The notes under the pieces were generated by a model. The model made no database searches and was not told the DNA's origin. It was given only the letters and a program-made list of their open reading frames with translations. A stretch of 60,855 bases of DNA, the filler included, from Sluysia triapertura (Eukaryota), in NCBI GenBank assembly GCA_046118255.1. It is 5 parts of 5 records of this genome, joined end to end, with 100 filler letters (N's around TTAATTAATTAA, not from the genome) between each part and the next. Parts side by side here need not be neighbours in the genome. Positions count along the whole stretch, not along the records: positions 1 to 12,689 come from JBJNIA010090014.1; positions 12,790 to 26,659 come from JBJNIA010015975.1; positions 26,760 to 38,204 come from JBJNIA010184690.1; positions 38,305 to 49,693 come from JBJNIA010185202.1; positions 49,794 to 60,855 come from JBJNIA010189474.1. One strand, given 5' to 3'. The translations under genes and the position numbers were made by a program. Shown here in pieces: positions 3,651 to 60,855 of this stretch (positions are counted from its first letter, which is position 1; each line of letters begins with the position of its first letter).

Positions 3651-4178
3651 TCATCTGATATATAGGTTCATCGAATTGTATTTTTGTGAAATCGTTGGTG
3701 GGTCCTTTGAATTCAGTTGTAGATGGATACTGTGCTGGAACAAAATGTCTATAGATTCCAGCAAGCTTTTTATTCGATCGAGGTGAATGTTGGTAACTGC
3801 TGAGTTAATTTCTATTTCTTTGAGCTCTTTGACAGAGTGTAAGTACTTACATATCACACCGTACATTTGACAATTACAAGATGGCGTAATCTCATATGGG
3901 CTTAACGCTCTCTTATAATGTTTATCGAGATTGAAATCATGGATTGAACTACGATGCCCGGGTTTGAAATTCTTACTTGGAATTTTAGATCGTGGAGTAT
4001 TGAGATTATTAATACTAAATGACAAATCAATGTCTTCAAGGTCTGATCTTATGCAGTCAGATTCAGTAGTAAACATAATATTAGCATCAGTCGATTTGAA
4101 GAGATTCAAATTTTTTTCTCGCTTTTGGTGGAGCATTCTTGAATTCGAACACACTGTTGGGATGATGTTAATACGCAT
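3651..4178 (-). CDS. Intronless orphan ORF (175 aa), cargo of cassette A; contains CxC-x6-C-x3-H
   Basis: Long open frame in very AT-rich DNA; no family recognised. Confidence 0.45.
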   Translation of the reverse strand: MRINIIPTVCSNSRMLHQKREKNLNLFKSTDANIMFTTESDCIRSDLEDIDLSFSINNLNTPRSKIPSKNFKPGHRSSIHDFNLDKHYKRALSPYEITPSCNCQMYGVICKYLHSVKELKEIEINSAVTNIHLDRIKSLLESIDILFQHSIHLQLNSKDPPTISQKYNSMNLYIR

Positions 4179-6500
4179 TTTATTTATAATGGATTCATAA
4201 TACTATGTATCAGAATAATCTTTAACAAAAACTAAAACTTTAGATAGGTATGATTTAACAGTATAATGCATTAATGTTTCGCATATTATTCTAAAAGTAC
4301 CTCTTTCTATAACATCATTTGGCGTAGCACAGACATAAAGTTTCAACCGTGCTAGAAAATTACATTCTGATTCGACACTAACAAATTGTGGATTATGATG
4401 TAACAAAAATCTGAACTTCTTTTCAATTTCACCATAACATGTTGAATAAATTTGTTTTGTTTAAAAATCTTTTTATTTTTCTTCTTGCTTTTATTGCTAG
4501 ATTTTGATAATACAATTCGTAAATCTTTCTCAATGTCTTCACGTAATTGATGACGAATCCTTTTATCTGCCCCGTAAATTATTAAATATTGAATAGGATA
4601 AAAATTTCTTTAATTTGACTAGTGTGATGAAGCATCATTAAAATTCGACTAGGAGTTGCTACTAAGCTGTCAATATCAGAAATACTAAGTTCCGTTAATC
4701 GATTAGTCATATCTATATCTCCAGTCAAACGCATTCTTTTCAAATTCATTCATTTTTAAAAACTCACAATACTCTTGTATTACTAATACTCTCACAATAC
4801 TAATTCAACTGAGAGAATTAAAATCATTAGGTACATAAATTGCTGATCGTTATCCAAACATCGTTAAATAACTTGAATATAATAGCGAACAGTTTTCCGC
4901 TGCCGGTTCCAAATAAACCAAAAACATTTTTATGTTTCAGTAATAATGGCGTAGCATGTTGTTGAATTTGATCCAACTTTGACCACTTTAATTTAGAAAT
5001 ATTATCTAAAAGTTTAGATATGTTAGCTGCGGCTGTTATCGTTATCGAAATAAGGTATTAACTTTTATCAGTGCTCTAAATTTTTAAATTTTTTTAACAC
5101 TATTAATGATCGTTACTTTCTTTTATCTGTTCAACGGTATTATTAGTGAAAAATTTTTTCTCTCTTTAATTTATTAAGAAATATCACCTATGAAATTTTC
5201 GTGCTTAAACAAATTATCAATCACATCAAAAACCTTTACGAAACACAAATGCTGTATCGTTTATACAACACCACTATCAATCTTTGTGTTGTATGTTACC
5301 TGTTTTCAATTAATCGATATGACTATGATGCATATGTCGATAATACAATCTTGTGTATCTGTGCAAACTACTGTCCTCCAATAATGATATTGTATGGTTT
5401 TAACTTGGTTATTTATGTTGATTGGACGAAAATTAAAGAGATGAATGAGTATAATATATGAAGAACTTTCTGATTGGTTAGCTAATCAAACAAAAAGTAT
5501 AACGAAACACCACTCACACCGTGTACATCACTCACTACATAATAATTAATGAATAAGTAGACATAACATAAAATTTTCATTATACAGCTGTCAATGGTTG
5601 ACAGTAAATACTATTGACACAGTTTTGTTTAATTAAAATTGTCAACTACTGACAATTACTAAGATGTGTTGAATATTAATGTTAAAAGAAATAATAATAT
5701 TGAATAATAATAATGAAAATGGTCAAAATAATAATATAATAATAATTAAAATTAAATGAAATAAAATAAAACAAATCCTTTATTTACTCTTTACATGCGC
5801 TTTCTATTAATATTTTGCTTTCTTAACATAAAAATAAATAAATTTATTTAAAGTGAAATTTGTGAGGAGTTGGAGGATTTAGAACTTGAACTATTTTGGA
5901 GTAGATTTTGAAATATATTTGAAGAGCTAAAGTGTAAATTATAATTCAAATGTTATTAGGTAAAGAATAAAATGTTTTACATGAATTTTTAATGTATATT
6001 GATGGTTGAGATGTAAATTGTGCTTTTAATGGTGAGAGCTTGTGAATTTAGCTGTTTTGAATAAACTTTAAATTGTAGATTGATTGTTTTAAATGTAATT
6101 GTGGTTCTGATGTTATGAATTATAGGTTAACATGTTTTAAAAGAGTTTTTAGATAATGATTGATAATTTTGAATGTTGACAGATTATTAATTTACATGTT
6201 TTGAGGTATGGAAAATGGTTTTAGTGGATCTGAAGAAATAAAATATAAAAAAGGTTTTAATGGAAAATAGTTAGTGTTATGGAATATGATTTTATGTGAA
6301 GTATGTTGGATTAAGTTTGCAATGTTTTGAATTAATTTTTTAAGTAAATCTTTGATGATTTTCGGAATTGATTGTGAATTTGATGTTATGTAATTTTATT
6401 TTTGGAATGTTTGGAAATATTATGAATTATGAAATGTTGTGAAAGGTTTTTTTGTTGTATGTTATGTTATAAAATTTCAAATTATTGGGTTGGTCACTAC
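3651..6500 (-). mobile_element. Cassette element A: G-poor repeat leader, junction motif 5830-5771, hairpins, CCAAT boxes, partly decayed orphan ORFs
   Basis: Shares junction and architecture with B-E; TGTTTT anchors at 5973/6053/6133 (80-nt period); boundaries approximate. Confidence 0.65.
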
Positions 6501-6897
6501 AGCATTATCCTTCTGATGAATTAATAAATTTGATTAAGTCAGAATTAAACTACTTTACATAATTCCCCAGTTATTATTCGAGTTCGTAATGCCATTTCCA
6601 ATTATCTTTGTTCATATTTTTAAAAGATGAACATAAACGTTATTTTAAATTATAATTTTAATTTAGTTTAATGAATTTTGTGGTTATAGAAAATCGCGTA
6701 AAGTAAATTATTGAAGTGTATAAAAATGTTAAGAGTGTATAAAGACGTTTTGCTTCATGAATATTTCCAGCATTTTAATAATTTTAAAAACAAATAAACA
6801 TATGGATATCAATTAGTTAAATATATTATTATCACTATTATTATTGCTGAGTTTTCCTTACTTGGACTTACGAATAAAGTAAACGATTTTTCTTGCG

Positions 6898-6945
6898 GTG
6901 AGTCCACCAACGTACTAGACTTAGCGATTAGGGTTAGCCGTTGGA
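6898..6945 (+). repeat. Structured motif H, copy 1
   Basis: GTGAGTC-ca-CCAACG-tacta-GACTTAG-...-CGTTGG. Confidence 0.75.
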
Positions 6946-9196
6946 TTTTTCAAGTCAATTAAAATTATAAAATTTAATATGAAAGTTATTTATCTGGCTG
7001 TCTAAAAATTTTATGAGATAATTACATATTAGTCTTGATAGTTATTAAATATAATTTTATGAAAATCCTATGCAAAGGATTTATATTGAAGGTTTATTTT
7101 ACGTATCCGAATGAAATTCGGAGAATACTTTATACACTAACTAATTTATTATTTTAAAACTATTTACGCTGGATTCACTAAATGAATCTTTCAACTTATC
7201 AAATTTAAACGAAAAATTCAATTTAATAAAGTTTACAATTAATGTTTGTTAGAGTCAATAAATTACTAATAAGATTGTTACAGAATTAATAAATTAATTA
7301 ATTTATAATAATTTACTCTATTAACTTTATCCAAGTTAATAAAAATACTGTGGTATTTTAAAAATTGATTTTTCGATTGAACCGTGAAAGGGTTCCAATA
7401 TATCTTAAAAATGAATTTAAGTCTATTTTACGTGTAATACTATTAAAAGTATTAAATACTTATAAACAAATAAACTAATGACAGTTAAAAAATTTAGAAT
7501 TGTCTTCTGAAAACAGCAAAGTTTTATCTTCTGAGAGTTTCTAATGGTTCATCTTCTGAAAACGGCAGACATGAATTTACAAATTGTTTCAGATAAAATT
7601 GTGCTAGTATTTATATAAATTTTTAACTGTCCTTGAAAAGGTTTTAAACAAATTTAAATTTTCGATACATATTTTAATATTTAATAATTATAAAATATAT
7701 AATTAAAATATACTTACGTAATTTAACAAATAATAAATCCAATATTAGTTTTGATAATTACGAAATAAATAAATCAATAAAATTAGACAGAATAAAATGC
7801 AAAGTATATACAAAATCAAATAAATCAATGCAATTGCATACAGTTAATTAATTACTTAGACACATATAAACACATATAACAAGTCAGTTAGTTAGATATT
7901 TATATTTACATTATTAAGAAATATTGTTTTAAAGGTGTATTATATATTACTAGATTTTCTAATATCACATTTAGGATTTTATTACGTGTTTCATTCAAAC
8001 TTTTTTTAGATCTAGCGATATATGTCTTTTTCACACATTTGTCTTTTTTGATTGTCGAAGAATCTTTTTATTACATTAATAAATCGACTAGTTCCAAATT
8101 CTTTCCATGAAATTTTTATTTTTCTTGATATTTTGTTTTCAGTACTATCTTCTGCAGCCGGTTCAGATAAATTTTGTTCCTCTTTTGATATTGTATTAAA
8201 CTAAATATAATAACGAAATTTACCCTTTGTTATCAATTAATTAAACTTATTTTGTTTTGTAAATTAAAATATGTTAGAATTCTTATATCTAAGATTTGAA
8301 ATGAAATTTAATAATTTTAAAAACAAATAAACATATGGATATCAATTATTTAAACAGAAATTCCATTACAATTGATATGTTTTTCTGAATTTAACATTTT
8401 CAGTTAAAATGGCAATTTTAGCTTATGAATATGCAAATAATGTAATTAGATTTAAAAGTACTGACACATTTTCCAAATGAATAAAGATTTGGAATCATTA
8501 CAAATTCAGCTTGTTAAAAGAATGAAATGTAATTCAGAAAATAATGAAATGATATTCTCTTTCCAGGTTATATAAACACTAAAAAATTTTGAGGCTAAAT
8601 CCACAGTTTCTTCGTATAATGATGACTAAAAAACATCACATTTATTAAATATTAATGAAATTATTAAATGATAAAAAGTCATTGTTGAAAATGTTAAAAG
8701 ATGATTTATTGATGCATCTCTTAAATGCCATACTTTATTTTATTATCAATAATTATTTTAATTATTTTACCTGTAGACAGATAATAAAACAGATAATAGA
8801 CTATTTTCTTATATTTATTATTTTTAAATAAAAACATGATTGTCTAAAGTAAAGCTCATATCCTCATGATAAAAGAAATGATTATTATTGTGAATTATAT
8901 GATAAAAATGAAAGTTCCTGATAAAGTTAAGAATTATGAAAGCAATAAAAGGTACGTAAATATTATGATATAATTTATCTATATACTTGTAGTGAATCTG
9001 ATTTACAAATTTATTAATGCATTTTACAACAGAAAATTTGTTTGAGGCAAGACCATTTTAATCAAAATTTTATTGTTTCTGGTGCAAGATCAGACAAACT
9101 AAATTAAATCGATATTCTTTAATAACCAAAATATCAAGTTTATGAAACAACTTATAGATCTGAAGATATTAGATATAGGTCTATAGCTGATAAGAA

Positions 9197-9280
9197 CAGT
9201 GGCGTGCCTAGGTCGTGTCCCAGGGAAGAGCAAGATCTGGCGCACCGGTGAACCTGCACCTCCCTGCCTCCCATTTGTTC
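9197..9280 (+). mobile_element. hAT-like transposon end fragment
   Basis: GC-rich CAGTGGCGTGCCTAGG...TGGCGCACC; similar end at 24989-25052. Confidence 0.4.
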
Positions 9281-9314
9281 TGTGAAGATTCTTAGAATAA
9301 AGTAGGATTTTAAC

Positions 9315-9362
9315 GTGAGTCCACCAACTTACTAGGCTTGCCAGTTAGGGCTAGCCGTTGGA
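9315..9362 (+). repeat. Structured motif H, copy 2
   Basis: Near-identical to copy 1, with GGCTTGC and CTAG/CTAG changes that keep the pairing. Confidence 0.75.
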
Positions 9363-9959
9363 TTTGTAGATAAAAGATTTTGAAGTAAAGTTTAGAATGA
9401 TTTTCTAAAGCGTGCGTGGTTTTGCTAGGATATTCTTAGTTTAATAACTTTACTGTTAATTTCAAATTTAGTAATTTAGTTGTTATGCTTTCTTTTAGTA
9501 ATGGTAAAGATTGCAAATGCAAATATATTTTAACTGTTGTTCATTTATATACTGTTGATTTTAACTGTTGTTGATATGATTAAGCCATCTTTTGAAAGAC
9601 GAAATCGATAAACAATTAAAGGTGAATTTGAAAATTTATATGAATAGTATCGCAGAATATTTGTGAATATTTACGAATATTTGTGATACGATAAGTAAAT
9701 AGAAATTTTAATAAAATATTTAAAAATAACATCAAATTATATTCAACAAAACAAAAGTAAAACAAAAGCAACATTGAAATATTTAATAAAACTTTAAAAA
9801 TTTCATGTGGCACAAATTCACTGACAATGGAAAACAAAAGTAGTATAAATTATTACCAGAATTAATAAATTTTTATAATAATAAAGTTTATTTTAATTTA
9901 AATAAAACTCCATGACTAATGACTAAAACTTCTATTAAAACTTCTAATGACTAAAATGC

Positions 9960-10800
9960 TTTGTACACTGTAGTGGTCAAAACTCATAATCCAAGATCAC
10001 AATCACACTCAATACTATCAATTTACAACTGGTAGTTCACAAAAAAACAACTTCTAAATCAATCATATTTCATACCATCATAAACAATATTCCACATTTA
10101 TAATAATTCAACAACAGACACATCTTAAAATATTCATCAAATACTCTCAATCTTTCACCTTATACTATATTTTGATAATTAACACCGAACAATCCATAAC
10201 ATTCATTTAATAGTTTAATCGCAATCACAACTTATAACATATATATCACAAATACATTAACACTGTTTAACAACATTAATAAGTACCTGAAACATAGAAA
10301 ATATCTACGTTACAACCTCGAATCAATTACACTAAGTGAAACTCATTTCATCGACACATAACCATTATCAACATTTTACAACAACATAGTAAATACGCCA
10401 AGATTTATTTTGTAATCTTTTTTTAAATTAAATAAACTATAACCTTTTAACAAGCCTTTCAAACCATTATATTTAATGCATAAATCTTGTTTTCAATTAT
10501 AAACCTTAAATAAATCTCAAGAATTTATTCTAACATTCTTTATTTTACTTACAACTCCAATCATTCTTTTATCTTCAAAAATAAATTTAATACAGCTTTA
10601 AAGAATTCATTTCCTTTATAAAAAGCAGCAACGATCACTTAAGCGCAGTATACCACATTACTGTTGTTCCTTCACATAATATTAATAGTTTTTATTTGTT
10701 ATTTTATTTTAATATGTAAGGAATCAAGATTTAGAAAGAAAAGATCATGTTAATTTTTATTAAAGACAAGATTTATGCGTTTTATTAGTAATAATAATAA

Positions 10801-10871
<71 letters not shown>

Positions 10872-12600
10872 TCAAATCATTAAAGAATTAAAATTTTAAT
10901 AAATGTAGATTAAACTGGTCGCTACAATCACCAGTTTTGACACAATATGTTACATTTTTCATTAAAGTGCCAACACTGATGATGGTCAATCATCAGATCA
11001 ATAATTTAGCCGCCAAAATAGCAATTACATTATACGTTATCAATCGCTTTAATCATTATTAAAGGCCTGATTGGATGACCGATAATAACGCCGTTCTTAA
11101 AACTAGCTAAAATTAGAGCATCAAGAAAAATAAAAATCGAGACTCAAAAAAATTAATAAACAAAAATTAAAATAACAAAATTTCAGCGTTCTTCTTGGTG
11201 AATTAGTAATTTAAAAAAACAGTAATTAGTTCTGATGGGAGAAAATTTAGACATTACACAAGGTGATATACATTTAGTATCTCCGTTCGGTAATACAATT
11301 TCGTCAACTAAACCAGAACGATAAAAGTTAACAGACGAACAAGTTCAACAGAAAATTGATCAAACTTCTGAAATCATAACTAATCATTTAGACAAGATAA
11401 AACTAATTAAAGATGACTTAGAAATCTATAATAATAAAGACTTTCGCAACAGTTTATGTATTGTCTATAATCAATATTATGTGTTTCAAAATTACAAAGT
11501 TCCACTTACTTTTCGTGATGAATTACGACATACAGATGCCGAAACATTGACACGCAAATGATTTAATTGCAAATTGCTTAATACCATACGTTAATTTGCT
11601 ATTAGAAAGTGATACTATGAGTGATATTAAAAATAATCTTTTTCGTTTTATTATAAAGATTATAATCCTTTTATTAAATTATTCTGATGTCTCTGTTGAT
11701 TTCGACGAAATTTTGTGTAAAACGATCGTTCTTTAACAATATTTCGTAAATTCCTAGAGATTTATGTGCTAGTTTATGTGAATGACAAAACAAACCAGAA
11801 ACGATTGAACGTATTAAAGGACCTTTGGTCAACGAAGGATAGTTTATTATTACATGAAGAAAAAGTTAACTTGGCTGTAATACTAGAAATGAAATTTTTG
11901 TAGTCATAAAACCATTACTTCATTGTGAACGAGAAAAAAGTAAATTATCAATTCTTCAATTTACCATATACGTTGATGCTGAGTCAGAAAGTTCTTTAAT
12001 TTTATTAGACGAGAGTCGTTTTATGTATTTGCTGTCATTATTGAAGAATTCATTGAAAAGTCTTAATCGGAGATCAAGTGGATGGTCAGCATTAGAGATA
12101 AAAAAAGTTATTCTAAAATGTTCTACTACAGTACGAGTTGTAAGGATTAATTCCTTTTTGTCTGGTAAACAACTAACTATATCAGAGATTGTTGATGAAA
12201 GTACTAAAACAATTATAATATTAAAACAGTTATAAAACAATTATAAAACAATTATAATTATAATATCGTTATAATATTAGCTTTTAAAGAAACTATAACT
12301 CGAGAATGTATTCATAATTTCCTCGTCGATATAATTTTTAGTTTCCTCTCAAACAATAATCTCCGAGATCCTCAATCCAACGTGACTATCCTACGATCTA
12401 AAATGAGATATAAGTTATTCTATGACGTCCCAATGGACCCCAATCATGCTAATAGATTCAATGTACATATAAGAAAATTGTATTACTTAGATTTTTTTCA
12501 AAATAAACATAAGCATTATTATAAAAATTCATCAGAAGTAATAATAATAAAAGTCAATAATAAAAGTGATAATAAAAGTCAATTTTATTGTTAATATTGT
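9960..12600 (+). mobile_element. Cassette element B with decayed ORF from ATG 11235
   Basis: Junction 10714-10778, (AAT)/(TAT)/(TAG) tract, hairpins 10912-10997, ATTGG near 11070; frame MGENLDITQG... with in-frame stops. Confidence 0.65.
10790..10871. repeat. Compound microsatellite (AAT)n(TAT)n(TAG)n
   Basis: Direct reading; other (AAT)n tracts at 12790, 26585, 31955, 38305, 50110 and 58560. Confidence 0.95.
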
Positions 12601-12689
12601 TTTTTCTGATAAATATATCCCTTGATAATTAGTTTCGGTAACTTCTTGTCCACATCTAATTACCAATTTCTTTGATACAAATATTAGTC

Positions 12690-12789
12690 NNNNNNNNNNN
12701 NNNNNNNNNNNNNNNNNNNNNNNNNNNNNNNNNTTAATTAATTAANNNNNNNNNNNNNNNNNNNNNNNNNNNNNNNNNNNNNNNNNNNN
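12690..12789. other. Artificial contig spacer (N44-TTAATTAATTAA-N44)
   Basis: 100-nt spacer with a six-frame-stop linker, identical at all four gaps. Confidence 0.97.
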
Positions 12790-12851
<62 letters not shown>

Positions 12852-13250
12852 TAATAATAATAACTTAAATATGTCTTGGAAAAATCAGTGAAACGTCGGC
12901 AATTAAAATTTTGCGTAATAAAATTAAATTCTGTTCCAATAAACAGTAGTGGTGGAGTAATAGTAATAGTAGAGGATCAAATTTTATACGACTGTAATAT
13001 TTAATATTTTAAATAGTTTGGATACAATGTCTATCTCCAGATATGCATGGTAAACCGGTTCGGAAAAACCCAATAAAAACTCAATTAAATATCTATACTG
13101 TTTTTTATTTCCAAATGAGAAAATCGGTTCAAATGGTTTGCCAATAATAGTTAATAAATTTCTTATTTAGATTTTGTAACAATATTAAAAAATCATTTTA
13201 GGGACCAGAATATAATTATCCAAATTTATTAATAATTACTATATTTGTAG

Positions 13251-26831: not shown

Positions 26832-27489
26832 TTAATTATAAATATGTTTCCGTTTGTTTACATTCCTTTTTATGTTATCTCTCAAAATATTTTTACTTAA
26901 ATCGCCCAAGGATAAATCTGGGTTTTAATGTATAAATATTGTAAAATTTCCACATTTTTATTTCCATTTTCCCTTATTTTAAAGAACTACGTACACACGA
27001 TAGGCACTCCATTTTAATTTGTTCGATAGTAATATAAATGTGCTGATAACCTTTATACTTTAGGTAATGCAGTAATAATTCAAAATCGAATTAAATTAAG
27101 TTAGAATCTGCAAAACACATCAACTAAATTGCACAGGAAATACATGTTTGCTTGATTACAAATGCACAAATTTATATTATTTTAAATTATCTTGTCATGA
27201 AATTCAAATAAAATTGTTACTAAAATGTTGCCTATTATTGATTCAGATACATTTACTTGATTATTGATGTTGGTTCACTTAATGATTTAATACCTAATAA
27301 CAATGCTTATTTCGATTTTGAGACATTAATTTATTTCATTTAACTTTCCGCCTATTAGTTGAGTCCAACGAACCCGAGTTTAATTTTCGCATTAATTTTC
27401 TAGTAATATGTTACATGAAAATTGTTTTGATATCTGACTTTTGAAATAAATCTGTATAATGAAAAAATAAAATTCATTATTTTATAGGT

Positions 27490-27991: not shown

Positions 27992-30900
27992 ATCCAAGGT
28001 AACATTCGTGTTTTAACACAAGAACGTGATAGTATCAATGAAAAGTATTTGAAAGTTAGTTATGATTTGAGTGATTAACTAATTAGTTTTATGTATGTTT
28101 TTAATCATCCTTAATTAAGATGCACTAATAAGAAAAGAGGGATATATATTAGGATATTAGGATAGGAGACATTGCTGTTCGTATTTAAAAATTCAATTGT
28201 TCAAATTGAACAATATTTTAAAAATATTCATGTACATTTAAATTTCAATGATAAATTTGTTTTATTTTATCATTACTTATTGGTTTTAGATGTTTTATGA
28301 TAATATTCATATTCGACATTTTGTCTTTTTCGAGATCCGAAACCACTGAATGTTTAAATGACGTTTCAAATTAAGGAATAGAAGTACAATGAGACTATAT
28401 TGGGTATGGATGCTCTGAACGTATTCATTGAATCAAATCCAAGTCATTTAAATGCGACATTAAGGTTTCACATAATTTGTTAGTAGAGCAATGGAATAAA
28501 AAGTTTATCATTATGATAACAGAAAGTTTTATAAATTGACATGATCATTTTATTGTTTGCATGTTTGAAAATTATATATGTATGTATTTCTTATTATAAA
28601 TTGTCCATACAGTTATAAAATGAAATTCAATAACATTTTCATCTGGTACGAAGACAACCTTTAAATAAATGACTTTTTGACTTAGAAAAGTAGTAATCTA
28701 ATGGTATCAAGAACATGCTTGATAAGGCGCCATTTTAAGTTCATGTAATTCTTTCAGTAATTTCTGGGTAAAGTAAAAGTTTCACTGAAGCAATTCGTAA
28801 ATCTTTTACTTTATTGAGTAGTTTCCATAATTTTTAAGTTCTTGATAAACATGTTGCAAGGTTACAACTTATCGCAAGAATGTTTTTATAAACAATAACT
28901 AATCAAATAAATAATTTTGTGGAGTAATATTTATAATAATGTATTTGTCGCATCTCTATGATATAGAATATTTAGATTATTTCGTATCTGGGAATTACTT
29001 GGTGCTTAAGTGTTAATATAAATTATTAAAATAGATGAAGCATTTATCCCAACTTTTCTTATTTGTAGAAATTTACTTCTTAATATACATTTATCGTATA
29101 AAATGTAAAAATTGAATCATATTTTAATTACACAGAGTCAAGAAGAGTTACACGAAGTTCGTACAAATTTATTGGATTTTCAGTCTCGTCTAGAGAGTCA
29201 GCAAGGTCAGCGTACTACACCAACTCAAACACGTGCTTTGTTACATCGTTTGGAAGCAGAATCCAAACAATCCATGGCTGATCTACATCGCATGACAACA
29301 GAAAGGGATAGTTTACGAGAACAATTGCACACTTGTCGAGAATTAGGATTGAACGAAAAAGCGCAGATGTCACAACGTGTCGATGAAGCCGAATCAGAAT
29401 TATCGAAATTAGTAAATCAAATAGACAAATGGCGTACACGGGTTAATGATTTGGAACAAGATGCGTACGTGAAAGAAGTTCGATTGAATGATATGGAACG
29501 AATAGTAGAAGAAGCAAGGCAAGAAACAACAAAATATCGCGATAAATTCAATATTGTGACAGATAAAGAAAAAGATTTAAATCAACAAAACCGTCACCTG
29601 GAATCAGAAGTGTTAGAATTGCAACGAGATTCACAATCTAAACAACAAATCATAGAGGTAATTCTTTGTCTATACTAGTGTAGTACTATCTTATACTTCT
29701 CAATATGTGGTCAAGATTGCTCTGTTATATTATTGAAATCAAAAGTAGAGATCTTTAACGAATAAATATTGATGAGATTGAATATGTTTGATTAAATAAA
29801 AGTCTCAATTACTATCAAAGTGAATGCAGTATTTGTTGTTAATCTATTTTTAAACCGTATGAGACGTTAAATAGTTATTAAATGATAATTTTAGATTTAT
29901 ATATGTTTTATTTATTAAGAACATACTGTCTCGGTATTTTAAATTATTTTGATGCAATTATAAAATTATACATATTATGTATATTGTATTAATAATGTAA
30001 TTGTAGTAATAAACAGTCTTAAATTATACTTTTTATTGAAGCACCCGACCATTTCTATTAAGTTAGCAGCCGTCAAGTTGACCGCGTACGATCAGTATAA
30101 ACCAAAAATAAACACAATATCAATGTTATAATTTCCCAGCGAAATATTACTATATTCATTCTATATTTATACTATATTTATTCTAGGTTTCATTCATTTT
30201 TATCTATTTTTAAAAAACCGATTGGTACTCTCTGATTTAACTGTTTGTTTTAATTTTACCGATGTTTCCAAGGATCTGCTGTAACACATAGAACTAATGC
30301 TGGGGTTTTATTTTATCTTAAAAAACTACCTTACAGAAAAATAAAAATTAATATTCGAGTTCGCTTACGGTATACGACTTACCAATGGCTTATCTGTAAG
30401 TAACGTGAAAGTATGCTTAAAGAATAACGATATAATAATACTTTTGCTTCATTGTGTATTAGAAAACTCCTATGAAATGCTATTAGACATATCGTGAATA
30501 AATTATATGCTAAAACATAATAACAACAGTGACCAACGTGTTCCCTTATAAAACTCGTTTATATCGAAACTTTCTAACGGAGTAATAATATAAAAATATT
30601 TAAGTTGAAATTTTATGTTATCTACTTTATCACAAGATGTAACGAATTATCTTTAAATGCATGTATGATCTACTAGGATAATATTAAAGCTAACTTTATA
30701 TTGTAATCTTACGTTATTTACTTTAAAAAATGGTCAGATATCGTTAAATATAAATTCGAGTAATTCAAATTTTAATATTACATTAAAAACAACAAATATT
30801 ACGTAAACTGTATTATATAAAACTTAAAAAACACTAAATACACAAATATAATTTATATCAAAATTATAATATAAATAATGATAATAACAATAATTTATTT

Positions 30901-36919: not shown

Positions 36920-38057
36920 GTAATATTCATTAATGTTTTATGATGATGGTGGTGGTGATAATGAAATAATGATTGAAATAATTCATTTAAGTATTTTTTA
37001 AAGAAATTTCCAAATAAATTTTCACAATAATCTTTGCAACACTTTTTGTTGATTTTGGTCTCTAAACCAACCGTTCATCGTCTTTTTGATACATTTAAAA
37101 CATACGAGATTTTGCAAAAGTAAGGCTAATAACAAAAATTCACCAATGCATAAAAAATTTTATTTTAGAAATGTGATGAATATGTCGATACTTTTAAAAG
37201 TACTCCTTTCTCTCAAGAGGAATAAAATTGACATTTTGGCGTCGTGATTTTTAGTTTCAAAGAGAAATCAATACTGATTAAGATTTATTTACGATAATTG
37301 ACATAAAACATTTCTTAACTGAAATAAATGAATTATAAAATTTACACAAAGGAAATTCACACGTAATTAATGCAATTTTTGCCATGTAATTTCTTAGTAG
37401 ACAATTGTATAAGATAGAATTTTACACAAGAAAAAATAATAATTGGGATGTGATATGTTAAAATTTTATTGACATATATTAGTTAAAGTAGTCAAAAATA
37501 CTAACGAGCATTTTTGGAATTGTGAAAAACATCTTAGAGAATTGTTTTCTCTAATATTATTTTTTTAGCCGTAAATAATTCGACTTTTCTCTATAATTAT
37601 TTCTATTTTAATGGATAATTCTACATTAAATACATAGAATTATACTACTAATTTATAAAAGGATTTTTTATTATTATAGATTACTTAATATATAGAATGA
37701 ATTCTTATTATAGAATATAGAATAATACTACTAATTTTAATGAATTGTTTGAATTGTACAGTTCATTTTATTTATTAATTATTATTATCATTATTATTAT
37801 TATTATGGCCATTATTACTCATTTTGCTCCTACATAAGCAAATAATACAAATTGAATAAAAATTAATGTAATTTAAATGTTACTTGTTATTTGTGTAATT
37901 AAATTAATTATATTTAATTATATTTTATATGATTTAATATTATTTAACACTCTGCAATCTTCTAGAATGTTATTGATTAACTCTGCGATTATCCTCAATT
38001 GTTTTAATTTTTTTGCAATTAATAAACATATTGAACTAAAGTTTTAAAACTTTTTTA

Positions 38058-38175
38058 TAATGCTGGGTGTTTTTCTTAACCTAAAAACCTAACCTATAGC
38101 AAAATAATTAATTATTATGAGTCCGTCTACAGTATACGACTTACTAATGGCGTACCTGTAAAATTACGTGAAAGC
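38058..38175 (+). repeat. Structured motif H, copy 5, with conserved flanks
   Basis: TGAGTC-cgtc-TACAG-tatac-GACTTAC...CTGTA. Confidence 0.7.
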
Positions 38176-38204
38176 AATTATCAAAATTAACTGTATAAAA
38201 AGAT

Positions 38205-39181: not shown

Positions 39182-39593
39182 GTTTAAAGAAGCCTACTAC
39201 AAATAGGTTAAGGGATGCATTATTTGATTCAGTTGGGGTTTCCTTTCAAATATAAATGAAATATACCTTGATTAATGCAAAAATATTAAAAAATAAATTC
39301 GCGTTTTGCTAGTGAACAGAACGAGATTGGAAACTAAGTATTTTTAATCGGTATTTTTACGTAAATTTAACATTGTAAGCTCTATTAATATAATTGTAAT
39401 ATTGGTTTATCTACTCATAAAGAAATAGATCATCGATCAAGTTACATTAAATAAAAGATACGCTTTTTATTGTTAATAAATGTGTATTTAAATTAAAAAT
39501 TAACCTTTGTCTTACAATATTTTGTTGCTTTTCAGTAATTTTTGAAATACAATTTTTAATAAGTTAAACCTTGAAATTCATGAAATTATGTTT

Positions 39594-39744
39594 GGGTACA
39601 GGCCTAAAGTGTCATTTAGAATAATGATAGTATAATTGACTATAATAAAATAAAATCGTTAGACGGGGCTGACAGCTCAGTGGTCAGAGCGCGAACTGCA
39701 CAGCTGTGAAGTAAGAGGGCCCGGGTTCGAATCACGGTCATCCC
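39594..39744 (+). repeat. tRNA-derived repeat, copy 3 (tRNA part 39665-39744)
   Basis: Same family with the same ~70-nt 5' flank; longer anticodon region. Confidence 0.8.
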
Positions 39745-39825
39745 GACAATATAATAGAAGTATGGAGTCTTCAAAATTCTTTATTAGGGTTATTGCCAAA
39801 ATCTACAATAAATATTTATTTGTAG

Positions 39826-49693: not shown

Positions 49694-49793
49694 NNNNNNN
49701 NNNNNNNNNNNNNNNNNNNNNNNNNNNNNNNNNNNNNTTAATTAATTAANNNNNNNNNNNNNNNNNNNNNNNNNNNNNNNNNNNNNNNNNNNN
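49694..49793. other. Artificial contig spacer
   Basis: Same linker; truncates a CDK exon. Confidence 0.97.
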
Positions 49794-50106
49794 TTATTAT
49801 TTAAAAATATTAAATAATTAAGCTATAATAGAATGTATATAAATATCACTTGCAAATATTTTGCAACGCACATTTATTAGTTATAGTTAGTTACAAAGTT
49901 TTTTTAAAGAAAACTTGAAGATATTATTCAGAATTAATTATTGAAATTCCGAAATTGAAGATACAAATTAAAAATATTTCTAACTATTGTTGTGATATTT
50001 ATTGTACTCACAGCTTAAAATCATAATATTTAAAATTATTATAAACATATATTTTAAAAATTATTTGTATTAATTATTATTAATTAATTATTATTATAAA
50101 TTAATA

Positions 50107-50153
<47 letters not shown>

Positions 50154-52008: not shown

Positions 52009-52385
52009 TTTTAAATTGAGATTGCATAGAGGTAATATAAATTCAAAATTTAGTAACAAAAAACAATAAATTGTACAGAGTAATCATTTTAAATTGAGAT
52101 TGTATAAAGATAACATGAAATCAAAATGTATAAACATTAATGAAATAAATAAAATCATTTTTAAATTAAGTTTTGGCAGAGATAATATGAAATTAAAATT
52201 TCAGAGCATCAAAAAATCATCTTAAAAACAGTATTCAGAATATTATGTTAAATAAAATAAAATCATGTTAAAGTAGGATTAAATAGAGATAACATGTAAT
52301 TGAAATTTAATATTATATTCGATCAAAATTATTTTAAATTAAGAATAGGCGGAATAGATAGAAATAACATGATATCAAAATTTAA
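52009..52385 (+). repeat. Degenerate minisatellite, 5 units
   Basis: Core TTTTAAATTRAG...AGAKAAYATGAAATYAAAAT separated by variable AT-rich linkers. Confidence 0.7.
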
Positions 52386-52439
52386 TTAATTAATAATTAA
52401 TAATAATGGTTATTATTGTTCTGTGCTTACTTAATTCTA

Positions 52440-52656
52440 TTAATTATTTAATAACTATTATTATTTAGTCTAATAACTATATTGTAAATAACTATAATGA
52501 TATTAATACTGTTGAATATTGTGAATTATTGTGAATAACTAAACTAATATTTAGTTTAAATAACTATATTATTTCTATTAACTATGGACCCAAAAAACTA
52601 TATATAGCAAAGATTTTTGTGGAATAGTGAACAATTCACTATAATTTTATTCAGTG
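52440..52656 (-). mobile_element. CACTG-ended (CMC/EnSpm-like) transposon end with AATAACTAT subterminal repeats
   Basis: Minus strand begins CACTGAATAAAATTATAGTGAA; about 6 AATAACTA repeats; related TAGTGAAwwwTTCACTA palindrome at 43880. Confidence 0.4.
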
Positions 52657-52729
52657 TAATTACAAAAATTACAAAATTCCAACACATATTAATACGATAA
52701 TGGATAAATCATAAAATAGCACGATAGAC

Positions 52730-53570
52730 TATGGAGAAATCCAAATTACAAATTAAAATTTAACAAAGACAAAAAAGAACAATTATATGAAGTTATTTAC
52801 CGTTTTCCAGAGGGAAATTTCAAAAAATAAATATGATATAGGAGACACCGTAATTATAAAACATGAAGATGAAGTAATTCGAAGGAAACTATATAGAATT
52901 AAAAGAAAATGGAGGACCAAATAGGTACCATGAAAAGGCTGAAGTAATGCGGCCAAATTTCTCCCTATTTTCGTCACCAAAATTACTAGTAAAGGAGAAG
53001 GATGATACGATTTGTATAGATTTTAGGGAGTTAAATAAAATACGAGGAAAGATGCATTTCCATTACCGCAAATAGACGAGTTGCTGGATGAATTGGGAAA
53101 CGCTACATATTTTACAACTCTCGATTTACAAAGTGGATGATTCATATCCATAGATGTCAAGCTGCAGCAAAAGAAGAGTGCACTTAAGAAATAAAAAAGT
53201 TCAAAAATCAAAAAAGGTTAGGCCAAAACAAAAATATCGTGATAAACTACATTCAATCCATTTATTAATACACAAACAAGTAGTATTCATGATTCATCTC
53301 CCACTGGTAATTCAGCTCATATAATGGGTTAGTGCAGCTATTGACACCGGTGCTACCACATCAGTAGTACATCGTAACTCTCTAACCACAAGGGAAATTA
53401 GTATTTATAAACCAACCTAGAACAATAATTTATAGTGTTAATCAAACACCGATTAATATTAATGGAGTGTTACTATGTTACATAGACATTTTGGTTTAAT
53501 TTGTACAAGTATCCGTAAATGTTTGGGATAGCCCATTCGACTTAATATTAGACTTAGGTGTTATTAATGA
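52730..53570 (+). mobile_element. Decayed Gypsy/Ty3 pol fragments (RT N-terminal part, then aspartic protease)
   Basis: CIDFRELNK..KDAFPLPQIDELLDELGNATYFTTLDLQSG at ~53015-53140; IDTGATTSVV at ~53340. Confidence 0.88.
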
Positions 53571-56500
53571 ATTGGAGGAAGTATGGTTTCATGAAACTTC
53601 CACAACTAATTGTTCCTCACGAAATAACTCTGTACAAACTTCTGAATTAGCATTTCCTGATGTTACTACTTCTATACTCCATTTGTCAACTGCTTCATCG
53701 GGTGAAAATTCAGATTCATCCGGATATATAGTTATGTTATTATTCTTATCTCTTATAACTAATATTAAGGCCACGGAAACTGATAAGGAACAAAAAATTA
53801 TAATCACTAACATTTATAACTCATCTCTAAAAAAATTAGGATTTACTATATTTATCTGAAACCATTATCAATTGGTAAACCATTTTTACTGTCTATACCA
53901 CCTATTTAATACACCTCTTTCACCTTTACTTCCCTGTCTCGATTCAATTGATTCTTTATATATACCTAGAGGTGTCACTAAAATCACACTATTGGAAAAA
54001 GGTATTCCATCCTTTCCTCTCTTTACGTCACTAATACAAATAGGAGCTGTAATATACTTGTTGAAGCAGCAAAGTTTTCAATGTCCATCGCGTTGCTATT
54101 TCATTTATCTCTAGTTGAATTTCAATCTTTTATGCCTAATATTTATAAGAATTTAGAACGTTCCGTTTCTGTCAATCTACGACGATGATCGTTTAGTTTT
54201 TGTAGCGTATTCATGTGCCTTTGATTTCTTAGTCGGCCTCATATGTTTCTTATTGTAAATAATATCGAACCATGTTTGAATTAAAAACTGTGTCCGCTAT
54301 ATCCAAGACTTGAAAGATACTGATATTCTTGATGCTAAGGACATAGATGACAAGATAATGGTACTGCTAAATACCTGTCTTATTATCGAGACTTTGCGTT
54401 ACCTCATGGTTGGCTTAAGGGAATCATATTACCATACTCCACCTCTGATTTAATATCACTGGCGCTCCAGACTTTTAGTTTATTATATCCGGTACCGCTT
54501 CGTATGACGTGCTTGATAATAACATTTGAATTAATATCTTTATTTGATTCTATCCGAGAGAAAGATATTCCTTCATCCTGGCCTAAGTGTTCCTAATTAT
54601 TTCACTTTTTCCTAATTCTACATCTGATTCCGCTCTTACTACTTCTAATGATGTTTTCACAATGCCACCAATTTCATCAGACATTCATCCTGCTCATGCT
54701 CCACTACATTGTGATGCCACAATCAGTAACAAATCTCTGAATCCACGTCAATTATCTTATGGTGCCAAACCTTCAGCTCAATCAATAAAGAGAAACAAAT
54801 ATCACCATTCTCATCAATTTACTCTGTTCATAGAAAATGAGGTTGATTTGGACTGTTTCCTCCGGATACCCTTGATCAAACATCTGATTAATATTTTGTG
54901 TATTACTTTGTTTAACTCATGTGATTTTTCTATGCTGATTAATTTTTTAGATTCGGGATGAATTTGTAAATAAAAGAGAAGTATTTATAAACGTGCCCGT
55001 TTAAAAAACATTTGAAAAATAAAAGTATTTTTAATTGTAAATTATTTAGAAATATACATTATTTAGTAGAAATACATATTATTTAGAAATTGTAAATAAA
55101 TTTTTAACATTATCTTAAATTATTTTAAAACTATAAATATTTAGAAATTTTCCTTAATAAAAATAAATAGAAAAATTTTTTAATGTATTTTAGAAAAATA
55201 TTCATGTTTATTGTACTTGAAGTAAAAAAAATAATAAATGCATAATAAAATATTTTTTGAGCAATAAAACTAGACAATATAAATATTAACTCTTCATGAT
55301 TTTTTAAAATATTATCAACCGCTGTTTACAAGATTAGAAACTCTTTTTACAAGATAAATCTTCAAAATTCAAAGGAGTTCTAACAAAAATTTCTTCAATA
55401 TCAATCTCGCTCATTAACAATTAATCCTTGGGTAATTAACATTTAACTGCTGGAAATCCGTTGTTAATTATTATTATTCTTCGAGTGTCATCTTGGAACC
55501 ATTTTTATTAGAATATCTAAGCATTCGTAAGTTAATTCTTATTAGAATACAACTTTGTTAAACTTAGTGTTAAAATCTTACGTAAATTTTCTCAATTTAC
55601 AAGCCAAGAATAACTCCTGACTCAATTTAATTTTTAAATTTATTTAAATAGTTAAGGAGAAAATCCTTAATTTTAATTTTATTGTGTTTATTATTTTTAC
55701 ATTTTTATGTATATATTATTATATTTTTTGTGTTTTTTAAATTTTTTAAAATGACCAATATTTATTTTCGTTCTGTTTCTTTTGTGTTTTGTTCAAGAAA
55801 TTTAATTTTAAAGAGAAAAATTTAGAAGAATTTAATTTGTAATTAAAAACTAATTTAAAAGAATTTAGTTTGTGTTTTAAAAGATTAAGCTAAAGGATTC
55901 CAGTTCGTAAGAAATTTAATTCAAGAGAATAATTTAATTTAACAAATAGTTTGATTAGTAACCTGCAACTGTGTTTTCCTTAGTGGTATCAATCACAAGA
56001 TTACAGGAGAACCCATAAGAATAATATTTATAATTGTGTGTGGACCAAAAGATTGAAGTAACAGCAAGGGAAATTTTGAATTTGATTTGATCCAGTGTGA
56101 TTTACATTATAATTTAATTCAGTGACATTTTAAATTAAACAGTTTGATATATATTACAATTTAATTCAGATAACAATTTAATCCAGTGGTAATGTAATTT
56201 AATTCAGTTACTTTCGTAATTTAATTTAGTGGTGTGTATATAGCTTAGAGAGGTAAGATTATATATGTTTTTTGGTCGAAAATGATAATATTAAGAAATT
56301 TAATTTTGTAATTCAACGTCTATTACAAAGTTATAATTCGATTATTAGAATAAAGTTTACGTATATAACTTATTATTTTATTTGAAAATGGAGGTGAGGA
56401 TAAAATCTAATAAAGGACCAAGAAATTAAAGTTTTCATTGTTTGTTAAAGTTTCTACAAAGGGAAATAAAGCTTTAAAGCTGATACAAATAAAGGTAAGG

Positions 56501-58559
56501 AAAATTTATAAAGCCGACATAAATAAAGTGAAAGACAATTTATTGCAATAAAGCATAGTTATTCTACGATAAAATAAAGTCGTTACCAAATAAAACCAAG
56601 TTGTCGTGAAGTTTAGATAAGTTATAAGATAAACAATGTTTCATAAAGTAAAGCTGTGGTGGATCAGCCGATTACCACGATCATATTATATTAATAACAT
56701 CATTTATAGACAAAAACTATCAAAAAAGATATCACAACACATTTCACTTATACCATCAAATAACATCACATCAAATCCCACACTTGCACCACTAGATTTC
56801 AACTTCAAAAACAATAAAGTTACAAAATCATTAATTAAATTAAATTTTAACTTAATAATACTAATCTTACTAAACTTCAACCTATACAATAAATATAACT
56901 CCCATTGTCGTCGTATCATCGTTATCCTTTTGTACTTTTTCTCATATTTATATTTTTATACTTCTGTTTTATTATGTCTATGTTTTACGAAATTTGTCTT
57001 TATATACCGAATAAACTTCCATCAAAATCTTATTACAAAGCAAGATTAAATTGTGATCGACCGCCACAACTCGGTGTGTCATTATGGTCTATATTATATT
57101 CTGTATTATATTTTATTATGTTATATCTTATATTATATTGTATTTATATTATGTTTTGTGCAATGCCTTCAAAGCCAAACGATTAAAGAAAAGAAAAGAT
57201 AAAGAATTGAACATAAAGAAATTGTTTAACAAAAGAAAATAAATTAATTGATTTAATAAATTAAAAACTACATCGAAAATGCGACCTTGTGCTATATTTA
57301 GAATTTTATAAAAATTTAAAGTTATAACAATGCTCATATTATTAACATTTTCATTTCATCTACAATTGGTTGGTCTGTCATTTCTTTTATTTTGCATCTT
57401 TTATTTTATTTATTCTTTCTTTCTTTCTTTTATTTTATTTTATTTCATTTTATTTATTCTATTTCTTCTCTGTACTACATTGAATACCAATCTTCATCGT
57501 GAATTAGTTCAATTTCATTGTTTTCGTTTACCTAATTGGAAGCTTGGGGTGACTTTTGGTCATTAAACTGATACCAATTTATTTCTTTCCGGATAGTTTG
57601 GAGGTTTAGAGCAATCTGCTTGGTTAATTTCTGTGCATTGTGTAGTGTTTCAACCATGCACTACAATCTCGTCGTCGTTCTCATACATAAATTCATACAA
57701 GTCATAATTCAAACCATACATAATCTACATATAAAATATTTTCTACATATCACCACTATTATTCCATTTTGGACGTGGTCTCTTATATTATCAAATGGAC
57801 TTAGTTTGTTATTTATCTATTTGCGTTTTATTATTGTTATTATATATATATATATGGACTTCTTGTGTTTTTCTTGTTAGATTTATATTATCAAGGACCT
57901 TAAGTCCACTTTTATAAACACAAATGTTTTAAAAGTTTATAAATTTAATAATTTTTTTCATAAATTAATGTTGCTCAATCAAATCAATAAACTATTAACC
58001 TTTTTTATCCTAATTAACAAACAATTAAAGAGTAAAACACTAAATATAACAACATTAAACATTAGATTTTGATTAAAGTGTGAACATTACATTAAATTTG
58101 TATGAGCTGTTGGTAATGATTTTAAGTAATCGAAGTTGATTTTAATGGTTTGTTAAACATTACTTTAACTAAGGTTGTTATCAAAGGTTCTGTTGTTATC
58201 ACAGTTTACATATAGTATATACCCAATCTTGTATGACATCTTTATACAGCATTCATCATGATCACTCATACCTATTTATACAAGAAAAATGGATAACATT
58301 CAAATGTTATAAACACCACAAAACCTATATATTTAAGACTAGGATTACATTTTAATAGTAATGGACAACTGCCTTCATATAATCACAAATCTTAAACACC
58401 TATAAAACCTACAGGGTTATTAAAATGAATTAATATCATTGAAATTTCCTTTAGACCTAATAATCGCAATGTATAAAAATCTTTTAATGATGTTGACATA
58501 TCTCGTTTTTATTAATAAAAATAAAATTAATGAAAAAAAATAATAAAGATAATAATAAA

Positions 58560-58615
<56 letters not shown>

Positions 58616-58908
58616 TTGTCGTGTAAGGTTTATTCTACGATTGATAGTAAGTTGTATTCGTACAAAACTCATGAAAACGATTTTCTATAAATTTAAACTA
58701 TATTTTGATAAAGTGAATTTAAATAAGATTTTGATAATGATAAGACTCATTTAGTCTTATCAGTAAAGAGTAAAAAATAAAGTTTTGATTTCAGAAATAC
58801 CCATGCAGTACATTTCACCTTACTTTTACTTTTACCTATTATATCATGAAATTTAGTACTATAAGTTGGATGGTTTTTATCATGGTGACATTTTATTATA
58901 ATGACATT

Positions 58909-60251
58909 TTAATGAAATGGCATTTGGTAAAATGAGTGGTGGTGAAACAGTATAAACGACAGTGTTATATAATTTAAATTATTAATTGATTTAAAATGTG
59001 ACAGTTTTTGACTAACTTTTGAAGATAGGAGCCAATGATCTATGTTTATTTTTATGGTGTAGATTGAAGTTGATGGCGTATTAGAGAATTTAATACAGTA
59101 AATAGCATAAGAAGTCGACTGAGAGAATGAAGATGTGTAAAAAGCATTTGATTCATAGTTGTACAGTCCAAATCTTAATGTTTTAAATTTTGACATCTTA
59201 TTATCCTTATTTACTTTGTTCTCTGAGACTATTCCTAATTTTTTATCAAATTTGAGGTAACAAACATGATCATTATCATAATAATTCACGATTGACAGAT
59301 CTCTTGGTCTAATAATCATAACACATTTGGTTCTTATAATTTGATTATTAATTTTGGTGTAAAAATTATTTATTAATAGTTCAAAGTTAATATAAAAGTT
59401 CGTAAGATAAGAGATATGAAAATGTATTTTAATTATATATAACAAATTTCTATTAATGAATTTACACAAGATTTCTGCTCTGGTCGTCCAACGTTCCATT
59501 GTCCAAACTATAATTGATTTAACTAAAAAATAATTATATCTATGAATGAATCTAAAACTAACAAAGTGAATAATTAATTCTACACCTGATGAAATACAGC
59601 TATCAGTCAAAAAGTTGTTAAACGGGTCAGTTCTTTCTATATCTATGTTTTTAGTACTATTATTCATTTTTGATGAGGAAGCACTCTCAAATACAATCAC
59701 TTTATACATATCGTTCACATTAACTCTGGGATGATCAGAGCAGCATATAAATTGAATTAACGATCTAAGTGGTTCTTCTTCAATTTTGGTTTCTTTATTA
59801 GCAATCACCTTTTTTGAACTCGTATCCAACCTTCCATAATGAACACTACAATCTAACTCTTTCGACCCACTAACATCATGTGAACTCACTGAACCCAATT
59901 CTCTAATATCAGCATATATACACAATTTGTAAGCATCTATTTCTTCGAGGTTTCTAACAGGACTCTTTACATTATTACTTGGCCAAGTAAGATAGTCTAA
60001 ATTATATACAATGAAGTACTTTATTTTATCTTTAATTTTTTTATATCTTCATTACTGGATAATTCTTTAATTTTACCATTTACTTGAAGAATAGGTAATA
60101 TCATATCTTGGAGCATATTCAATAGACTCGCTGGATCGGTGTATTCAGTTATGCCATAATTTATATATTCGATTATACCTTCTAATTCATTTATTAACCT
60201 TGAAAATAAATCTTTATACGATTTCAATATTGAATTATCATCAGTTTTCAT
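58909..60251 (-). pseudogene. Near-intact intronless orphan ORF (~445 codons, one frame disruption near 60020), cargo of cassette E
   Basis: 76-aa ORF followed after a frame change by a >338-codon open frame; no recognisable domain. Confidence 0.55.
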
Positions 60252-60855
60252 TATTACACTGTTTTAAACTTTATTCTGGATGATTCTCCGATTGTCTGGG
60301 TTTAATACACTGCAAACTGTCAATTGAATCTAAATTTTTAATTGTGAATAGTTTGTTTTTTGTGTTGCATAAAAATTTTTTGTTACCTCTATTTGAAGAC
60401 TTCCCAATCAGAGTGTTCCGAAATTAATGAGAAATATGTGCGCTCTGATTGGGTGATGATGTAAATTAATGTTTTCTGTTTGATGACGCAATAACCACCG
60501 TCATCATTGATGTCATTTTGATGACAATTTTAATAAGCATTAATAGTAATGATGACGGTGGTAACCAATTTAATGTTTTATGTCAGAATTTGATAAAACT
60601 AATTATATAATAAATAGCGATAATGATGATGATAATAATAGTAATAACAGTATTAATAATAATAAAAATGATACAATTATTGTTATTATTATTATTATAA
60701 AGAATTTCCAACAAAAAGCATAAATCTTTGCATCTTAAACATGATCTTTCTGTTGAAATCTTTATTCTTTTACATATTTACATATATATGAATGAAATAA
60801 AAGAAAAGAAACGAATGTTATGCTGCGAAGGGACAACCGTAACTAAGCGTATAAT
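58909..60855 (-). mobile_element. Cassette element E (leader runs off the window)
   Basis: Junction 60775-60718; perfect 15-bp inverted repeat 60494-60508/60548-60562; inverted CCAAT pair 60403-60453. Confidence 0.7.

Follow-up and report, generated by a model that had tools for sequence, protein, structure and literature searches.

Tandem arrays of terminal-repeat retrotransposons in miniature (TRIMs) are non-autonomous derivatives of long terminal repeat (LTR) elements, and in multipartite single-stranded DNA viruses of the nanovirus and geminivirus type a common region with spaced repeats and a hairpin is shared by units that carry one gene each. Here we describe, in a 60,855-nt stretch of DNA from Sluysia triapertura (the window; five contigs joined by N spacers, ~25% G+C), five diverged copies, A to E, of a non-coding module that is followed in four cases by decayed coding regions unrelated to one another; all counts of copies and sites given below are those within this window only. 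The feature is real and has been assigned to no known family. We tentatively favor, with a probability of about 0.4, the reading that the five copies are relics of a diverse, non-autonomous family of retro-copied gene shuttles.

Large retrotransposon derivatives (LARDs), in which other DNA takes the place of the coding core and which are moved in trans (PMC6431247), resemble the units described here. LARDs and TRIMs have in common with these units a stretch resembling a polypurine tract (PPT) before TG and a short TG..CA span (3/5 copies); unlike them, the units have no flanking LTR pair or primer-binding site (PBS) that could be found, the repeat is internal, with the putative priming site before it and the gene after it, and the cargo differs from copy to copy. 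Bdelloid LTR retrotransposons, from a spiralian host, show the swapping of unrelated open reading frames (ORFs) among retroelements that is also suggested here (PMC5408684), and Athena and Terminon, which are Penelope-like elements (PLEs), carry variable captured ORFs (PMC6431247); in all of these the extra ORF stands beside gag-pol or a reverse transcriptase (RT), whereas no linked RT was found for the units here. PLE repeats also carry hammerheads, of which the units share no core. The giant gypsy elements Burro of planarians and Ogre of plants have long non-coding modules and accessory ORFs, as here, but also paired LTRs and gag-pol, neither of which is seen in the present units; Pack-MULEs and Helitrons likewise include non-autonomous units with captured genes (both comparisons: PMC6431247). 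Unlike Pack-MULEs, the units are without detectable terminal inverted repeats, and their cargo looks near full length behind a promoter-like stretch of its own. Like the common region of multipartite single-stranded DNA viruses, the module is non-coding and shared, contains spaced repeats and a hairpin, and comes with a single gene in each unit; the units differ from the segments of such viruses in the lack of a nonanucleotide, the low identity between copies, the absence of Rep and capsid genes, and the animal host. No described system with this architecture, and no DEAD-box gene borne by a transposable element, was found in the literature library that was covered, which was partial and had Repbase and Dfam outside the comparison, so that an unclassified entry might already exist there.

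A junction core conserved in five copies

The junction occurs at five sites on contigs 1, 2 and 5 (3/5 contigs), with the first ATGT starting at positions 5829 (A), 10714 (B), 14799 (C), 20279 (D), and 60775 (E). These agree to within 1 nt with the original prediction, which had placed five junctions on three contigs. The core is 44 nt long, aligns without gaps in 5/5 copies, and has its two TGT motifs exactly 33 nt apart in every copy, while core pairs are identical at 24–32 of the 44 letters (55–73%). The retention of an indel-free core at such low identity points to functional constraint.

A degenerate junction pattern has four exact matches in the window and none in 100 shuffles. In leave-one-out tests, matrices built from four copies placed the held-out copy at rank 1 of 121,624 positions in 5/5 cases, with scores of 17.7–32.7 against a next best of at most 11.8 in four tests and 12.2 in the test of C. 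Under the full matrix, scores are 40.9–48.1 for the five copies and 9.0 for the highest-ranking site elsewhere, and the 30 shuffled windows reach up to 19.6; the two lowest scores of held-out copies (17.7 and 18.9) fall inside this shuffle range, which was itself computed with the full matrix. The scan of the window with the full matrix yielded no sixth copy, and candidates at ~57200, 58812, 33511, and 27415 were rejected, all of them lying below the shuffle ceiling. The junction patterns had no match in the viral contigs searched; in metagenome contigs they gave none at first and then a single match (L002), which sits in bacterial-type coding DNA, is not preceded by a leader, and is regarded as chance. 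A motif scan without the core as anchor lacked specificity, since three of the nine regions that it picked were true copies.

Two observations concern sites with a partial likeness to the core or module. A 48-nt inverted pair (27439-27483 and 33511-33558, 79% identity) resembles, on its 33511 side, the first half of the core only. Around the end of the E cargo (58500-59200, minus strand), a G-poor stretch is succeeded by a purine tract, then by TGT at 58812, and lastly by (ATT)n, in module-like order; there is no core similarity at this site, and the likeness to the module is limited to the ATT tract.

The leader and the promoter-like stretch

Upstream of the junction, G content falls sharply in 4/4 testable copies (A–D), and the change in G/C from one side of the junction to the other is significant in each (Fisher p 5e-6 to 5e-3), so that the G-poor leaders that had been claimed for these copies are confirmed; the fall in G is accompanied by a rise in C. 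The A and D leaders align at 70% identity over 482 gapped columns and are the only pair of six with homology beyond that of shuffles. The leaders have no coding signal and no clear tandem array, and the hexamer AACATT, which is part of the core motif in inverted form, occurs in them 17 times against 6.5 expected. The second TGT is preceded by 20–24 purines in 26 letters in 5/5 copies, a T-rich tract precedes the purine tract in 4/5, and pure purine runs of at least 8 nt end 3 nt before TG in B, C, and D (Table 1) but not in A and E, where they reach at most 7 nt. The PPT-like appearance noted in the original prediction is thereby upheld, and the T-rich tract and purine runs fit the description of a PPT as 8–22 nt long and accompanied by a U-box (PMC2790888). 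Moreover, in HIV-1 the editing maximum lies 5′ of the PPTs (PMC1635257), which is the same polarity as that of the G depletion that stops at the junction here. At 56600-57250 and 19120-19560 (both plus strand), G-poor, A/C-rich DNA again leads into T/C-rich tracts; these two regions lack the core and possibly belong to another element family.

Downstream of the junction, TGACA/TGTCA occurs 12 times at +100..300 against 1.9 expected, and CCAAT/ATTGG 12 times at +240..420 against 1.7 expected, both intervals having been picked after inspection; the previously reported CCAAT boxes are thus clustered as claimed, except that B has only the reverse form. The inverted repeat said to be present in each copy is clear in B, C, and E (hairpin z of -3.1, -4.3, and -5.8, all significant), weak in A (-2.2), and absent from D in the stretch folded (-0.1). 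AAAACAG is found at +468..+489 in 3/5 copies, where the resulting TG..AAAACA spans measure 474–495 nt with inverted ends of 3–5 nt. An ATG follows at +487 (B), +516 (C), and +490 (E), in agreement with the predicted distance of ~490–520 nt, and in B and E it comes soon after AAAACAG. Alignable homology comprises the core (8/10 pairs beat at least 199/200 shuffles), the A–D leader pair, and some AT tracts. The shared module of ~1 kb that had been proposed therefore holds for the core and the fixed order of features, but alignable homology is mostly limited to the core: the module is mainly a common order of features and composition, rather than 1 kb of alignable sequence.

Decayed and unrelated cargo

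Behind the modules of A, B, C, and E the sense strand shows a coding signal in the form of stop depletion (0/100 shuffles as good, each); behind D there is none (69/100 shuffles as good) and no coding cargo. Stops are likewise scarce on the antisense strands of B, C, and D, and therefore the test demonstrates, for B and C, coding ancestry more than direction. No intact ORF is present in any cargo, the fewest-lesion paths requiring 7 stops and 5 frameshifts in A, 2 and 3 in B, 2 and 6 in C, and 0 and 1 in E (12, 5, 8, and 1 lesions, respectively). The description of the cargo as intronless ORFs has to be abandoned, since all are broken, D has none, and C contains an intron candidate. An alternative genetic code was rejected because host genes in the window are read by the standard code and the cargo also has frameshifts. 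The cargos match neither one another nor anything else in the window, in accord with the earlier statement that they barely resemble each other.

The A cargo matches the SrmB model in two stretches (E 1.8e-6) and the Vasa-like protein BmVLG (E 4.6e-4), 22 of its 23 PDB matches are DEAD-box proteins, and its middle part gives a weak colinear DEAD-box match (E 0.88). Judged by these similarities, it is a decayed, derived DEAD-box RNA helicase, so that the earlier view that no cargo protein is recognizable fails for A and stands for B, C, and E, which are without convincing relatives. An identity as RecQ was rejected, as E. coli RecQ gives no match where DEAD-box models do. Homologue searches were blank for the C-terminal part of A and for the C-terminal ORF of B. 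The N-terminal part of B gave, in one of nine PDB searches, a weak match to the poxvirus core protein E11 (E 0.0022), which is backed neither by Pfam nor by the mostly helical, low-confidence structure model (predicted local distance difference test score, pLDDT, of 45) and is a lead only; the SGWS motif of B may resemble a domain found with protein-primed polymerases.

For the C cargo, homologue searches returned no credible relative, its single match (P0001) being an artefact from a long repeat protein with 27% identity over 10 stretches. Its 47-nt GT..AG candidate intron lies between two open segments and is about as long as short introns of the host that were recognized by eye; C is broken elsewhere regardless. 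In the main frame of C (15510-16040, plus strand), TAG accounts for 5/6 in-frame stops against a background share of 15% (P 0.0004 before correction for the post hoc choice). The E cargo has no relatives in homologue searches, and its structure model is unusable (pLDDT 32). The sole break in E (~60030-60045, minus strand) falls in a run of seven A, where decay, assembly error, and programmed frameshifting are alike possible. Sub-threshold matches to a TcdB_N helical domain, DUF4972, NLBH, phrog_12301, and a crustacean neurohormone were taken as chance.

These features bear on the idea that the module is an immobile host regulatory region, such as a stage- or cell-type-specific promoter, placed before fast-evolving and now dead host genes. 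TGACA and CCAAT are indeed frequent promoter motifs in animals, C has an intron candidate of host size, and A is a host-type gene. However, the window has no core close to a recognizable host gene, none of the cargos is intact or related to another, and the A and D leaders are homologous over ~480 nt though their cargo is not, and we regard this explanation as quite improbable.

Table 1. Components of the five copies in window coordinates.
Feature	Position	Strand	Particulars
A leader, G-poor, C/A-rich, non-coding	5860..6545	-	Alignable with D leader; from composition and alignment
B leader, G-poor	9850..10690	+	T-rich tract at end; from composition
C leader, G-poor	14230..14770	+	From composition
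D leader, G-poor (part analysed)	20305..20725	-	From composition and alignment
A core, 44 nt	5788..5831	-	TGT at 5828 and 5795
B core, 44 nt	10712..10755	+	TGT at 10715 and 10748; purine run 12 nt
C core, 44 nt	14797..14840	+	TGT at 14800 and 14833; purine run 10 nt
D core, 44 nt	20238..20281	-	TGT at 20278 and 20245; purine run 19 nt
E core, 44 nt	60734..60777	-	TGT at 60774 and 60741; leader cut by window end
A promoter-like stretch	5378..5775	-	AT-rich tract; TGACA palindromes (5589-5658); CCAAT 5477, 5425, reverse 5382
B promoter-like stretch	10771..11222	+	TTTATG; (ATT)n/(TAG)n tract; two hairpins (~10912-10996); reverse CCAAT 11070; AAAACAG 11216
C promoter-like stretch	14851..15215	+	TTTATG; AT-rich tract; long hairpin (~14982-15044); five CCAAT/ATTGG sites
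D promoter-like stretch	19911..20227	-	TTTATG; AT-rich tract; one TGACA-type site; CCAAT 19963, reverse 19915
E promoter-like stretch	60259..60725	-	TTTATG; AT-rich tract; 15-bp hairpin (~60494-60562); CCAAT 60452, reverse 60408; AAAACAG 60265
A cargo, reads as decayed, derived DEAD-box RNA helicase with Cys-rich tail	3654..5306	-	Q motif/motif I, Ia-Ib, and C-terminal domain across frames
B cargo, decayed orphan coding region	11235..12232	+	Stop depletion; N-terminal weak unconfirmed poxvirus E11 match
C cargo, decayed orphan coding region	15349..16550	+	GT..AG intron candidate, 47 nt, 15463-15509
E cargo, orphan coding region, least decayed	58912..60251	-	76 + 379 codons, one frame break

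Long LTRs and a proposed retro-copied gene shuttle

The original prediction regarded the copies as several-kb 3′ LTRs of ordinary LTR retroelements with ORFs in U3. The PPT-like tract, the TG start, and the U3-like motifs agree with this, as do the long LTRs and accessory ORFs of planarian giant gypsy elements (PMC6431247). However, no second copy of any of the five modules was found, in either orientation, in the 1–4 kb of searchable flank (limited for B by the contig end) or by self-BLAST, and hence no paired LTR; a CA..TGG PBS at +250..620 is absent in 4/5 copies, and the three in D are unshared. Upstream of A–D, Pfam scans gave no gag or pol match (pol absent in 4/4), the sensitivity of Pfam to decayed pol being limited: it missed the Ty3 RT relic described below, and decayed pol might therefore have gone undetected above D or in the interval separating A from B. 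Above C, the distance from the end of a host WD40 exon to the leader is 836 nt, which leaves no room for gag-pol, and the A and B leaders lie back to back, 3.3 kb apart. Finally, a scan for the downstream features only, tuned on the five copies, picked 5 of 419 sites (null mean 0.3), all with the upstream part, so that no 5′ or solo LTR-like copy lacking it was seen among the 419; assuming that half of all LTRs are without a PPT, the probability of this is no higher than ~1 in 32. The model of long, ORF-bearing 3′ LTRs is thus largely refuted locally and is very unlikely, and the five copies are therefore not to be classed as LTR retrotransposons. What does find support is the more general notion of a family that is mobile and combines a constant module with variable cargo.

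We propose instead that the cassette was copied by reverse transcription using the enzymes of another element. The T-rich tract, purine run, and TG would form a plus-strand priming site; the ~480 nt from TGT to AAAACA would be a short repeat resembling U3, in which TGACA and CCAAT sites would drive the gene behind it; and the leader may be G-poor either because the minus strand was single-stranded longest just 5′ of the priming site or because unstructured RNA was selected. In a one-LTR circle, or at the shared LTR of a tandem array, the priming site precedes U3 and the gene lies behind. The order of priming site, repeat, and gene could accordingly represent a one-LTR circle or the shared LTR of a head-to-tail array, and its insertion would then have differed from ordinary integrase insertion of two-LTR DNA. 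Cargo such as the putative DEAD-box gene would have been captured from host RNA, used for a while, and then left to decay. Given their different cargo, different decay, and low identity, the five copies probably represent separate subfamilies in which selection maintained a single cis module until they decayed.

Ty3-type RT relics are present in this genome, which counts for the retro-copied reading: a decayed Ty3/gypsy RT fragment lies at 52920-53600 (plus strand; PDB Ty3 RT, E 4.8e-8), 7 kb from E, on the opposite strand and unlinked to any module. Furthermore, the capture of unrelated ORFs by retroelements is documented in another spiralian (PMC5408684). The Ty3 relic is followed by an aspartic-protease-like motif, read by eye, and four degenerate direct repeats with 72–107 nt spacing (52009-52315) lie just upstream of it.

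Several points weigh against the retro-copied gene shuttle. No second LTR, PBS, gag, or pol is tied to any copy, nor, with element ends that five diverged copies leave undefined, is any target-site duplication, and none of the 419 sites is a 5′ or solo LTR-like copy. The pure purine run is shorter than 8 nt (at most 7) in A and E, and C and D lack AAAACAG, which is modestly enriched (three shared 7-mers against 0.5; 4/200 shuffles). The model assigns no function to the upstream TGT (at -33). Differences between the A and D leaders show no A/G excess (11/144), and since C is raised as well, G-to-A editing of the leaders is not shown. The intron candidate in C should have been removed by RNA copying, and a one-LTR arrangement was not observed but is assumed in order to accommodate the data. 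Further weak points of this reading are the missing partner element and the need for an unusual insertion route.

With respect to PLEs, there is no hammerhead match in Rfam at E up to 1 and no shared core motif, and no PLE RT linked to the modules was found in the regions scanned, which make up part of the window.

Multipartite replicons and DNA-level shuttles as possible alternatives

Each unit might, alternatively, be an endogenized segment of a multipartite DNA virus or plasmid-like replicon, its common region consisting of an origin, in which a pair of initiator sites would be spaced by 33 nt, together with a G-poor flank that is strand-exposed, a hairpin, and a promoter, followed by one gene. 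This would account for the single, always different gene per module, the presence of the whole module in 5/5 copies, the constant distance, roughly three helical turns, between the two similar TGT motifs, and the hairpins in 3–4 of the five; the weak E11 match in B would also fit, but has no support from Pfam or the structure model. Segments served by one initiator would be expected to be more alike than the 55–73% of the cores. Moreover, no nonanucleotide is shared in the hairpins, no Rep, capsid, or polymerase gene is found in the small sample of four cargos, the viral contigs searched contain no match, and ~17% of the window, a rough estimate, is a high load for a non-integrating virus. We consider such a replicon unlikely.

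Pack-MULEs and Helitrons are known to capture genes (PMC6431247), and the module might be the end and promoter of a DNA-transposon or Helitron/Helentron-type shuttle that takes up, as DNA, genes of the host or of transposable elements. Three features would be natural under this hypothesis: the candidate intron of C, the high density of copies, and the enrichment of AACATT in the leaders, reminiscent of subterminal binding sites. Against it, no module has an inverted partner; inverted matches of 7–8 nt to the junction TGT are absent downstream, those to the upstream TGT (7 nt) being found in E only; C and D, which face each other, show no greater similarity than other pairs do; the regions scanned yielded neither a transposase nor a RepHel domain; and the sharp G skew is left unexplained. 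This makes a DNA-level shuttle a rather doubtful alternative to the retro-copied gene shuttle.

Implications

Five copies in 60 kb, covering by rough estimate ~17% of the window, each from an apparently different subfamily and with four different cargos among them, suggest a major unclassified repeat class that would move whole genes behind a ready promoter. If the putative priming site is indeed one, the units represent a retroelement architecture without paired LTRs; if they are segments, they represent a multipartite element in an animal lineage where none was found described in the partial literature covered. Either reading offers a testable route for the birth of orphan genes, and the 44-nt core provides a sensitive probe for an autonomous partner. 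More speculatively, and with odds that we put as low without being negligible, the units could belong to an undescribed class of multipartite selfish elements, in which gene-sized units share one replication-and-promoter module, carry a different gene each, occupy a large share of the genome, and depend on an unseen unit that supplies the copying enzyme. Were this the case, a derived Vasa-like helicase among the cargo could blunt small-RNA defense.

Host setting and other repeats in the window

The best matches of a glycogen synthase exon, at no more than 77% identity, are mostly from molluscs, flatworms, and annelids (120 matches listed of 4,263), and therefore the host looks, from these matches and not from a tree, like a spiralian invertebrate without a close relative in the searched collection; the highest-scoring match among those listed is a moth protein with 66% identity. 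The WD40 host exon was confirmed at ~13240-13440 by Pfam scan, and SPAG16, CEP135, CDK12, and a dynein light chain are names that we presume for host genes in the window. A weak match to the SIX1 SD domain at ~8080-8230 (minus strand), below the Pfam cut-off (E 0.012), is either a host exon or chance.

Three tRNA-like repeats (25784-26122 and 39588-39745), 75–86% alike, which match the Rfam tRNA model weakly and are not called as genes by ARAGORN, are likely a tRNA-derived short interspersed nuclear element. Between modules A and B, a short repeat is whole at 6774-6948 and represented by pieces at 8307-8391 and 9291-9365, ~900 nt apart, the sequences being 78–98% alike. A dispersed repeat pair at 29843-30438 and 37602-38201 has a 119-nt core with 78% identity.

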